The notes beneath the pieces are model-generated. The model saw nothing but the letters and a program-made list of their open reading frames with translations, had not been told where the DNA came from and did no database searches. Made by a program: the position numbers and the translations under genes. From Escherichia phage ECO95 1-6-1, in the sequence record OR845635.1: DNA of 1,879 nucleotides. One strand, 5' to 3'. Positions 12 through 259 of the stretch are shown here, piece after piece; position 1 is the stretch's first letter; each line of letters opens with the position of its first letter.

Positions 12-55
12 TCTGTCCCCCTCTCCTGTCTGATGTCTGAATCTGTTTATGCCCC

Positions 56-86
56 AAAAACGACAGGCACCCCGGAGGGTGCCTGT
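56..86 (-). terminator. Candidate intrinsic (rho-independent) terminator for minus-strand transcription, located between I and the putative J start
   Basis: Perfect 10-bp GC-rich stem (plus-strand 63-72 ACAGGCACCC pairing with 77-86 GGGTGCCTGT) and a 4-nt loop. On the minus strand the hairpin is followed by CG + TTTTT (plus-strand A5 at 56-60). Confidence 0.5.
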
Positions 87-113
87 GTCATGACGGAATA
101 AAATTTCTGAATT

Positions 114-129
114 TCTTCACATTTTCTGT
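114..129. repeat. Direct repeat copy 1 (TCTTCA-CATTTTCTGT; the 10-mer CATTTTCTGT at 120-129 is exact)
   Basis: The exact 10-mer CATTTTCTGT occurs at 120-129 and again at 210-219, each preceded by TCTTCA with a 2-nt difference in spacing. Confidence 0.5.
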
Positions 130-212
130 ACGCCCCCGTGGCAGATATCATTCCCGGGCGTTACAGTTTTTTCGGGCCAATAAAAACAAAACTCCCTGTG
201 GTTAATCTTCAT
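117..212 (-). other. Possible small ORF (31 codons, MKINHREFCFYWPEKTVTPGNDICHGGVQKM) in the I-J spacer; coding status uncertain
   Basis: Minus-strand ATG at 212-210, TGA at 119-117, below the size cutoff of the supplied ORF track. Weak purine-rich GGGAA about 7 nt upstream. Its start and stop codons fall within the two copies of the direct repeat. I recognise no homolog. Confidence 0.15.
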
Positions 213-219
213 TTTCTGT
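206..219. repeat. Direct repeat copy 2 (TCTTCATTTTCTGT; the 10-mer CATTTTCTGT at 210-219 is exact)
   Basis: Second copy of the 10-mer, 90 bp from the first; it lies immediately 5' of the 221-252 hairpin. Confidence 0.5.
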
Positions 220-220
220 T

Positions 221-252
221 CCCGCAGCCTTCGGTCACTGCGGGATTTTTTT
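221..252 (+). terminator. Candidate intrinsic terminator oriented for plus-strand transcription, abutting the 3' end of I
   Basis: 7-bp stem CCCGCAG (221-227) / CTGCGGG (238-244) with a 10-nt loop, followed on the plus strand by A + T7 (246-252) and further T-rich sequence. On the minus strand the hairpin is followed by A-rich sequence, so it is not a good minus-strand terminator. Confidence 0.4.
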
Positions 253-259
253 ATTCTTT

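Follow-up and report, generated by a model that had tools for sequence, protein, structure and literature searches.

A putative PasB/EcOnc22-24-family sRNA gene and a terminator-like hairpin in the spacer between tail genes I and J of a lambdoid Escherichia phage

The family to which we assign the small RNA (sRNA) gene described here has been found twice before by experiment, as PasB in EPEC and as EcOnc22, EcOnc23 and EcOnc24 in the EHEC strain Sakai. PasB, an 83-nt RNA encoded in prophage PP6 of EPEC E2348/69 (NC_011601.1, 1466343..1466261, minus strand), emerged from a RIL-seq study as a Northern-confirmed, Hfq-dependent RNA; its Northern probe was AATCCCGCAGTGATCGCGGAGCT, its level in the hfq mutant was changed by log2 -6.8 and -2.4 in two conditions, and no seed or target motif was reported for it (Pearl Mizrahi et al., 2021; PMC8550237, Table S6). 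A published survey of bacterial genomes, carried out by BLAST with a word size of 28, characterises PasB as mainly single copy and as typical of strains other than EHEC; for EHEC strains it reports PasA, PasC and PasD instead (Zhu, Shabalina and Storz, 2026 preprint; 10.64898/2026.05.13.724894). EcOnc22, EcOnc23 and EcOnc24 are encoded on the plus strand in the Sakai prophages Sp15, Sp14 and Sp11, respectively, give Northern signals of ~85 nt and are destabilised in an hfq deletion (Tree et al., 2014; PMC4104026, Table S2). Protein-coding insertions in lambdoid prophages are familiar as well, the prophage sodC moron being an already known example (D'Orazio et al., 2008; PMC2569942).

The link between EcOnc22-24 and PasB is absent from the note in the PasB table (PMC8550237) and from the text of the 2026 preprint (10.64898/2026.05.13.724894), and the identity of the two as one family, with the third allele described below, has apparently not been pointed out before. 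In what follows, positions, homology, architecture and distribution come from the present analysis, and expression, size and Hfq dependence from the papers on the homologs.

Gene order and length of the I-J spacer

The window, by which we mean the whole stretch of 1,879 nt analysed here from Escherichia phage ECO95 1-6-1 (OR845635.1), carries the lambdoid tail genes L, K, I and J, all on the minus strand according to the ORF list and Pfam (Table 1). The I product is 67% identical to that of lambda over residues 1-224, and the 103-nt overlap of K with the start of I is the same in lambda. The J start that a preliminary description had placed at position 11 holds good: the first codons read GTG GGT AAA GG and give MGK (MGKG), matching lambda J, and the RefSeq start of gpJ lies at the equivalent base in O157:H7 strain 2571. 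The copy in that strain is 97% identical, has the same gene order in RefSeq and carries no annotation in its I-J gap.

Table 1. Features of the window, with positions counted from its first base
Feature	Position	Strand	Basis and remarks
Gene J, first codons (tail tip / host specificity)	1..11	-	GTG at 11..9; gene leaves the window
J ribosome-binding region	16..27	-	AGGAG 27..23, GGGGGA 21..16; read from sequence; kept in related spacers
TGTCTGA heptamer, twice in tandem (tail strand: TCAGACA)	27..40	strandless	Read from sequence
Hairpin 1, terminator-like	56..86	-	Stem 86..63 with 4-nt loop, CG, U5 60..56; scan and fold
Putative sRNA promoter block	105..151	+	Block TTCTGAATTTCTTCACATTTT 105-125; -10-like TATCAT 146-151; weak -35
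PasB/EcOnc22-family sRNA gene, window allele (putative)	158..252	+	Covariance model match; predicted 5' end; antisense to the tail operon
Hairpin 2, predicted Rho-independent sRNA terminator	221..252	+	CCCGCAG 221-227 / CTGCGGG 238-244, U7 246-252; fold
Tail assembly gene I	260..940	-	ORF list; Pfam Lambda_tail_I; stop TAA 262..260
Tail gene K (JAB and NlpC/P60 peptidase)	838..1581	-	ORF list, Pfam
Tail gene L, 3' part	~1587 to window end	-	ORF list

Between I and J lies a spacer of 248 nt (12-259), with a GC content of 0.46, lower than the 0.59-0.61 of I and K. The lambda gap, between the end of I at 15444 and the start of J at 15505, measures 60 nt, in agreement with the preliminary description; its account of an expanded, AT-richer spacer is therefore sound. 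Alignment of the window spacer with that of lambda confines homology to the gene ends. Close to J, the number of TGTCTGA heptamers differs among relatives, one locus (L045) having four copies.

The I-J gap was measured at 80 viral and 12 genomic loci that encode relatives of I, the latter including several apparent contaminants or distant phages with gaps of 86-96 nt. Distant junctions, those of Enterobacter, Rahnella and Pantoea, have gaps of 86-96 nt, and the close relatives, with I 96-99% identical, fall into three gap classes: 234-259 nt, to which the window belongs, 295-343 nt and 851-903 nt. The I-proximal ~160 nt, including hairpin 2, are common to all three classes at 70-80% identity, and the J-proximal part is class-specific. 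In the longest class an ORF on the opposite strand encodes a Cu,Zn superoxide dismutase (Pfam Sod_Cu, E 4e-32). Since related prophages carry this antisense sodC between I and J, the junction can be regarded as a site for the insertion of extra genes. A moron, as reportedly defined by Juhala and colleagues in 2000, is extra DNA between conserved phage genes with a promoter and a terminator of its own. The window has the extra DNA at the gene boundary (248 nt against 60 nt in lambda) and a terminator belonging to it; its promoter scan is blank, as is that of the expressed EcOnc22 locus.

The sRNA homolog and its promoter region

The experimentally detected RNAs map to the same junction. In PP6, RefSeq has the end of gene I at 1466255 and the start of gpJ at 1466496, leaving a gap of 240 nt, and these coordinates place PasB at the I-proximal end of the gap, antisense to both genes. 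The locus has TTCACA-16-TATAAT on the sRNA strand, an sRNA terminator and a tail-strand terminator before J, and the PasB probe spans a hairpin homologous to window 221-244. For the Sakai RNAs the published coordinates need correction, because Tree et al. used an older Sakai record. Against the current record the offset amounts to about +135 to +146 bases; it was obtained indirectly from Rfam-located sRNAs flanking the EcOnc loci and is consistent on both sides: AsxR and AgvB as placed by Rfam lie ~135-146 bases to the right of the peaks listed at 1.27 and 1.94 Mb, and EcOnc06 meets its STnc100-like RNA (3.49 Mb) only if shifted by ~100 bases or more. In NC_002695.2, the EcOnc22, EcOnc23 and EcOnc24 peaks all fall inside 240-nt I-J gaps, at the same relative offset. 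With this indirect correction, the Hfq crosslink peaks lie in the sRNA body immediately 5' of the terminator hairpin, that of EcOnc22 covering the stretch CCUGAAAAAUAACUCCAUAACGUUAAUCUUCAUCGUUCUCUCCCGCAG...

A covariance model (R1) of 17 alleles, from which window-type alleles had been excluded, matches the plus strand of the window at 158-252, over the entire length of the model (positions 1-93 of 93; 65.4 bits, E 2e-11). It has no match in lambda, and its best score among the distant junctions searched is only 16 bits (E 0.2, locus L088). As the match spans 158-252, the hairpin at 221-244 and the U7 behind it can be read as the terminator of the sRNA. In pairwise comparison with the other alleles, that of the window has 71-81% identity. 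The window is 96% identical to Sakai Sp11, Sp14 and Sp15 over 12-111 but only 57% identical over 112-220; the sRNA region has therefore been exchanged as a cassette. The I-J gap of the window is colinear with that of the PasB locus over the entire length, and also with the EcOnc22-24 loci, and the layout, an antisense gene in the I-J gap adjoining the I stop, is that of PP6 and of Sakai Sp11, Sp14 and Sp15.

By its sequence, the I-proximal part of the gap is homologous, over the full length, to a family of validated prophage sRNAs. By the same measure, PasB and EcOnc22-24 are one family at a fixed I-J site, and the window carries a third allele of it, widespread and associated with Stx phages. 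Transcription of this allele as an antisense sRNA is predicted from its homologs. The preliminary description had proposed a small antisense transcript or a moron-like insert, and was right in kind: its plus-strand hairpin is, on the evidence of the model, the terminator of a PasB/EcOnc22-24 homolog, and a sodC moron occupies the same junction in relatives.

The distribution of the allele is broad. The first 300 bases of the window match in 782 of 5426 complete E. coli genomes, at a median of 5 places each, and in 107 phage records, mostly of Stx1a or Stx2a converting phages. The window allele itself (112-259) is present at an identity of at least 95% in 464 of the 5426 genomes (~9%), in 1551 copies with a median of 3 per genome. 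It is also found in Stx phages of the Stx1a and Stx2a types, such as YYZ-2008 and Stx2-converting phage 1717. The O157:H7 genomes among the matches listed, for example EC4115 and TW14359, have mostly a single copy. Sakai is not among the best 60 records listed, and the allele appears to be absent from Sakai and from E2348/69, the two strains with Hfq data.

Twenty distinct sRNA sequences of the family, taken from the loci fetched, delineate its anatomy. Upstream, a block TTCTGAAT.TCTTCACATTT and a -10 element (TATAAT in most alleles) are kept. The body begins with a conserved GCGUUA and retains a U-run, an A-rich stretch that closes with AAYUCC, and AUCUUC; at the 3' end a 7-bp stem, CCCGCAG/CTGCGGG, is followed by a run of T, mostly seven; some alleles have six, and in one (L015) the run is interrupted. 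Variation is found on the 3' side of the U-run, between AAYUCC and AUCUUC, ahead of the stem and in the loop, and RNAalifold predicts the terminator as the sole common structure. Such a layout would fit an Hfq-dependent, trans-acting sRNA.

In the promoter region of the window allele, the block aligns with the TTCACA-16-TATAAT sequence (11/12 consensus matches) of E2348/69 PP6 and of two further loci (L012, L047), and the -10 reads TATCAT; at the site of the PasB TTCACA the -35 is a poor TTCTGT, and with elements of this kind a promoter scan of the window finds nothing. The missing consensus promoter and the TTCTGT are what one would expect if the spacer held a silent relic, a PasB-type cassette with a decayed promoter, of which only the hairpins still mattered, as terminators or insulators, or nothing at all. 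Promoter loss does occur, since sodC junctions of one type (L036) have lost the whole promoter block. However, the scan is equally blank at the EcOnc22 locus, which nevertheless gives its Hfq-dependent band (PMC4104026), so its failure is weak evidence against a promoter in the window. The key A and T positions of the -10 are preserved, the body motifs, the U-run and U7 are all intact, and sequence identity of at least 95% has been kept across the many copies counted above and in many inducible Stx phages. A silent relic is therefore unlikely, and from the homologs we infer that the window allele is an expressed sRNA with mRNA targets.

The two hairpins and a two-module reading of the spacer

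Both hairpins that the preliminary description had pointed out withstand folding, each being more stable than all 200 of its shuffles. Hairpin 1 folds with -23.5 kcal/mol (z -3.98). It is flagged by the terminator scan with 10 pairs (7 GC), a loop of 4 nt and the tail CGUUUUUGGG, has the GC-rich stem-loop directly followed by a U-tract that marks an intrinsic terminator, and stands ~45 nt upstream of the J start. Hairpin 2 folds with -14 kcal/mol (z -3.5), and its 3' end is 7 nt short of the I stop codon. The simple scan misses it and flags the homologous hairpins in E2348/69 PP6 and Sakai Sp15. It would act as a terminator on the plus strand only, because on the minus side an A-run precedes it and no U-run follows. 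The two had been called convergent, which is not their geometry: they lie back to back at the two outer ends of the spacer, each placed to halt transcription that exits it.

Both hairpins are kept across diverged alleles. The stem of hairpin 2 is invariant in 20 of 20 distinct sRNA sequences, with a varying loop; there is no covariation in it across these sequences, and hence no covariation support, because the stem never varies. Hairpin 1, also with a varying loop, is kept in all spacers of 234-259 nt, and both E2348/69 (at its PasB locus) and Sakai Sp15 have it too; one pair of its stem changes across alleles from C-G through U.G to U-A, a single compensatory pair. The 295-343-nt class has a different strong hairpin in the same relative place before J, and lambda has a hairpin, AAACCGCC-UGCG-GGCGGUUU, before the J ribosome-binding site, which the terminator scan does not call a terminator. 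The sodC-type junctions have no intergenic tail-strand terminator upstream of J. Hairpin 1 is best described as a conserved terminator-like element of the tail strand, the role of which we infer from its position and from the biology of late transcription.

We consider it probable that the spacer combines two modules, a PasB-family sRNA gene and a terminator-like element of the tail strand. The first (about 105-252, plus strand) would be an sRNA gene of the PasB/EcOnc22-24 family, inserted beside the I stop and antisense to the late tail operon. It would comprise the promoter block with its putative -10 at 146-151; an A/U-rich, largely unstructured body of ~95 nt with the motifs U-run, AAnAAnAAYUCC and AUCUUC; and, at its end, the GC-rich hairpin of 7 invariant pairs with U7 behind it. 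From its homologs, the sRNA would be expected in the lysogen, where Hfq would bind and stabilise it, and it would pair with mRNAs in trans, the variable 5' and central body setting the targets and the conserved hairpin with its U-tail serving as the Hfq handle. During lytic growth its perfect complement would be present in the late mRNA, between the I and J cistrons. The second module (56-86, minus strand) would most likely block unmodified polymerase from entering J in the lysogen and be passed by polymerase modified by Q.

Late transcription in lambdoid phages is antiterminated by Q, and the Q-modified polymerase passes intrinsic terminators across the late operon. This speaks against the suggestion of the preliminary description that the tail-strand terminator is an attenuator within the late operon which sets the I:J expression ratio. 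Its place between I and J on the coding strand, with a hairpin and U5, its conservation and the presence of a pre-J hairpin in lambda and in the 295-343-nt class would all suit attenuation, but the sodC-type junctions, whose tail operons are otherwise near-identical, do without an intergenic tail-strand terminator before J. We give attenuation little credence. As those junctions lack such a terminator, the second module is not needed for tail gene expression, and its most economical reading is an insulator against unmodified polymerase that Q-modified polymerase ignores.

A protein-coding role for the spacer is very improbable. The ORF list does contain a 31-aa ORF (117..212, minus strand), which sits between the two hairpins on the tail strand, and a 74-aa ORF (138..362, plus strand), from either of which a small protein might be made. 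Yet neither the length nor the frame nor the start codon of the 31-aa ORF is conserved, the PasB allele differing in both length and sequence; roughly every second allele has ACG for its ATG, as the sRNA motif conserved at this place reads AUCUUCGU; indels between alleles are not multiples of three; and the 74-aa ORF runs antisense into gene I. [quoted passage not shown]

That the spacer sRNA belongs to the AgvB/AsxR anti-sRNA family or to another Rfam-curated prophage sRNA is hardly conceivable despite the similar setting, in which Hfq-bound sRNAs of EHEC lambdoid prophages have a conserved 3' and a variable 5' part: the window, PP6 and Sp15 have no Rfam match above threshold, while the AgvB and AsxR families (RF02702, RF02703) were both detected at their own Sakai loci in the same run, and AgvB and AsxR lie downstream of PR' and not in the tail operon, so that position and model mismatch together refute the identity. 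Rfam searches of the window with E up to 10 gave chance-level matches only, among them anti-hemB with 17.7 bits against a cut-off of 49.5, and no match to AgvB or AsxR. PasA, PasC and PasD are ruled out by context, since they adjoin holin, lysozyme or Q genes.

With the two-module reading preferred, a further step can be offered as a speculation, and a rather doubtful one. The I-J junction of STEC lambdoid prophages might be the site of an exchangeable sRNA cassette, with a fixed promoter block and Hfq terminator and a swapped body, such that polylysogens with up to eight copies would carry different target specificities. Because the sRNA is the exact antisense of the I-J leader, late transcription at induction would soak up the sRNA or be cleaved opposite to it. 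If true, this would tie host regulation and the expression of J to the lysogenic or lytic state.

Comparison with known systems

No new kind of element is revealed by the window. What it offers is a flag on an unannotated gene in a block that annotation pipelines leave blank, and a view of PasB, EcOnc22-24 and the window allele as a single family at one site, which changes how the spread of the family in STEC is seen. The alleles also provide a natural series in which the evolution of sRNA target choice can be studied.

Compared with lambda, the gene order is the same and a hairpin likewise stands shortly before the J ribosome-binding site; the lambda gap differs in its 60 nt, in the lack of the sRNA module and in giving no match to the family model. 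Morons of the sodC-F1/F2 type (PMC2569942) resemble the window in being extra DNA between I and J, antisense to the tail genes and equipped with a terminator of their own. Unlike the window, which has no sodC, they are protein-coding, with a spacer of 851-903 nt.

The likeness to EcOnc22-24 extends to the I-J junction, the strand, the architecture and the J-proximal half of the spacer, which is 96% identical. The promoter block and sRNA body, on the other hand, are only ~57% identical, and the sRNA is ~77% identical to EcOnc22.

With PasB the window shares the I-J site beside the I stop, the antisense orientation, the promoter block, the U-run, the A-rich body, the CCCGCAG/CTGCGGG hairpin and U7, and with the PasB locus the tail-strand hairpin upstream of J. 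It differs in an sRNA that is ~77-78% identical overall and ~71% in the body, in a promoter weaker by consensus, and in a longest exact match to the 83-nt PasB of 18 nt, because of which the published BLAST survey with its word size of 28 would miss the window allele. Finally, PasB is usually single and common in non-EHEC strains, whereas the window allele has a median of three copies per genome and is seen in STEC and Stx phages.

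Mosaicism and variable repeats in the I-J spacer

The J-proximal part of the spacer (12-111) shares 96% identity with the Sakai prophages Sp11, Sp14 and Sp15, and the adjoining stretch that holds the promoter and the sRNA body (112-220) only ~57% with the same three. As judged by this drop in identity, the junction between the two parts is a sharp mosaic boundary, with breakpoints close to the conserved TTCTGAAT block and to the invariant terminator. Further, the copy number of a heptamer repeated immediately upstream of the J ribosome-binding site varies among relatives, since the related locus L045 carries four copies and the window two. 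Moreover, the class with spacers of 295-343 nt, represented by the locus L012, carries an unrelated segment of ~180 nt (~1290-1471) in place of the J-proximal half, and a strong hairpin resides within it.

Features of the window, of the compared I-J junctions and of the Sakai loci
Feature	Locus and coordinates	Remarks
Two tandem TGTCTGA heptamers	window 27-40	TCAGACA on the tail strand
Strong hairpin AAAACCCCGGTATC-TGCT-GATACCGGGGTTT	L012	
sodC (Cu,Zn superoxide dismutase) with its own terminator	L036 2179-3032; L047 2179-3084	antisense; same I-J junction
181-aa ORF	L086 2136-2681; L088	tail-gene strand; distant lambdoid I-J junctions; Pseudocitrobacter faecalis, Enterobacter wuhouensis
STnc100-family RNA and AgvB or AsxR gene, directly adjoining	L099 428-682; L101 487-739; L100 1723-1982	opposite strands; Sakai Sp10, Sp17, Sp5

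Additional genes at the I-J junction

Junctions bearing sodC are further present in the loci L029, L046, L072 and L092. In the L036 type the sRNA promoter block is gone, so that ~60 nt separate the sodC terminator from the sRNA body downstream; TTCACA-16-TATAAT is retained in the L047 type. The ORF of 181 aa, which begins with a signal-peptide- or lipoprotein-like N-terminus and gave no match to Pfam, may constitute a further moron at this site. L092, together with L083 and L085, comes from the short contigs of assemblies labelled Streptomyces flavalbus, Parendozoicomonas haliclonae and a Clostridiales MAG. The gene I products on these contigs are 89-97% identical to the E. coli prophage protein of the window, and the contigs most likely represent contamination.

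Sakai sRNA coordinates and the start of gene I

The EcOnc peak coordinates in Table S2 of Tree et al. (2014) fall ~135-146 bases below those of the current RefSeq record NC_002695.2, an offset checked in Sakai against AsxR, AgvB and an STnc100-like RNA, and mapping these sRNAs onto that record requires a shift. The STnc100-family RNAs and their AgvB or AsxR neighbours in Sp10, Sp17 and Sp5 make up the convergent sRNA pairs that have been described downstream of PR'.

The RefSeq/PGAP annotation of O157:H7 strain 2571, Sakai and E2348/69 gives a shorter gene I of 582 nt, which is probably a truncated version of the gene. In the window, the I ORF begins at 940 and shares its first 103 nt (838-940), in a different frame, with the end of K, exactly as I and K overlap in lambda; its N-terminal 33 residues can be aligned with lambda I.
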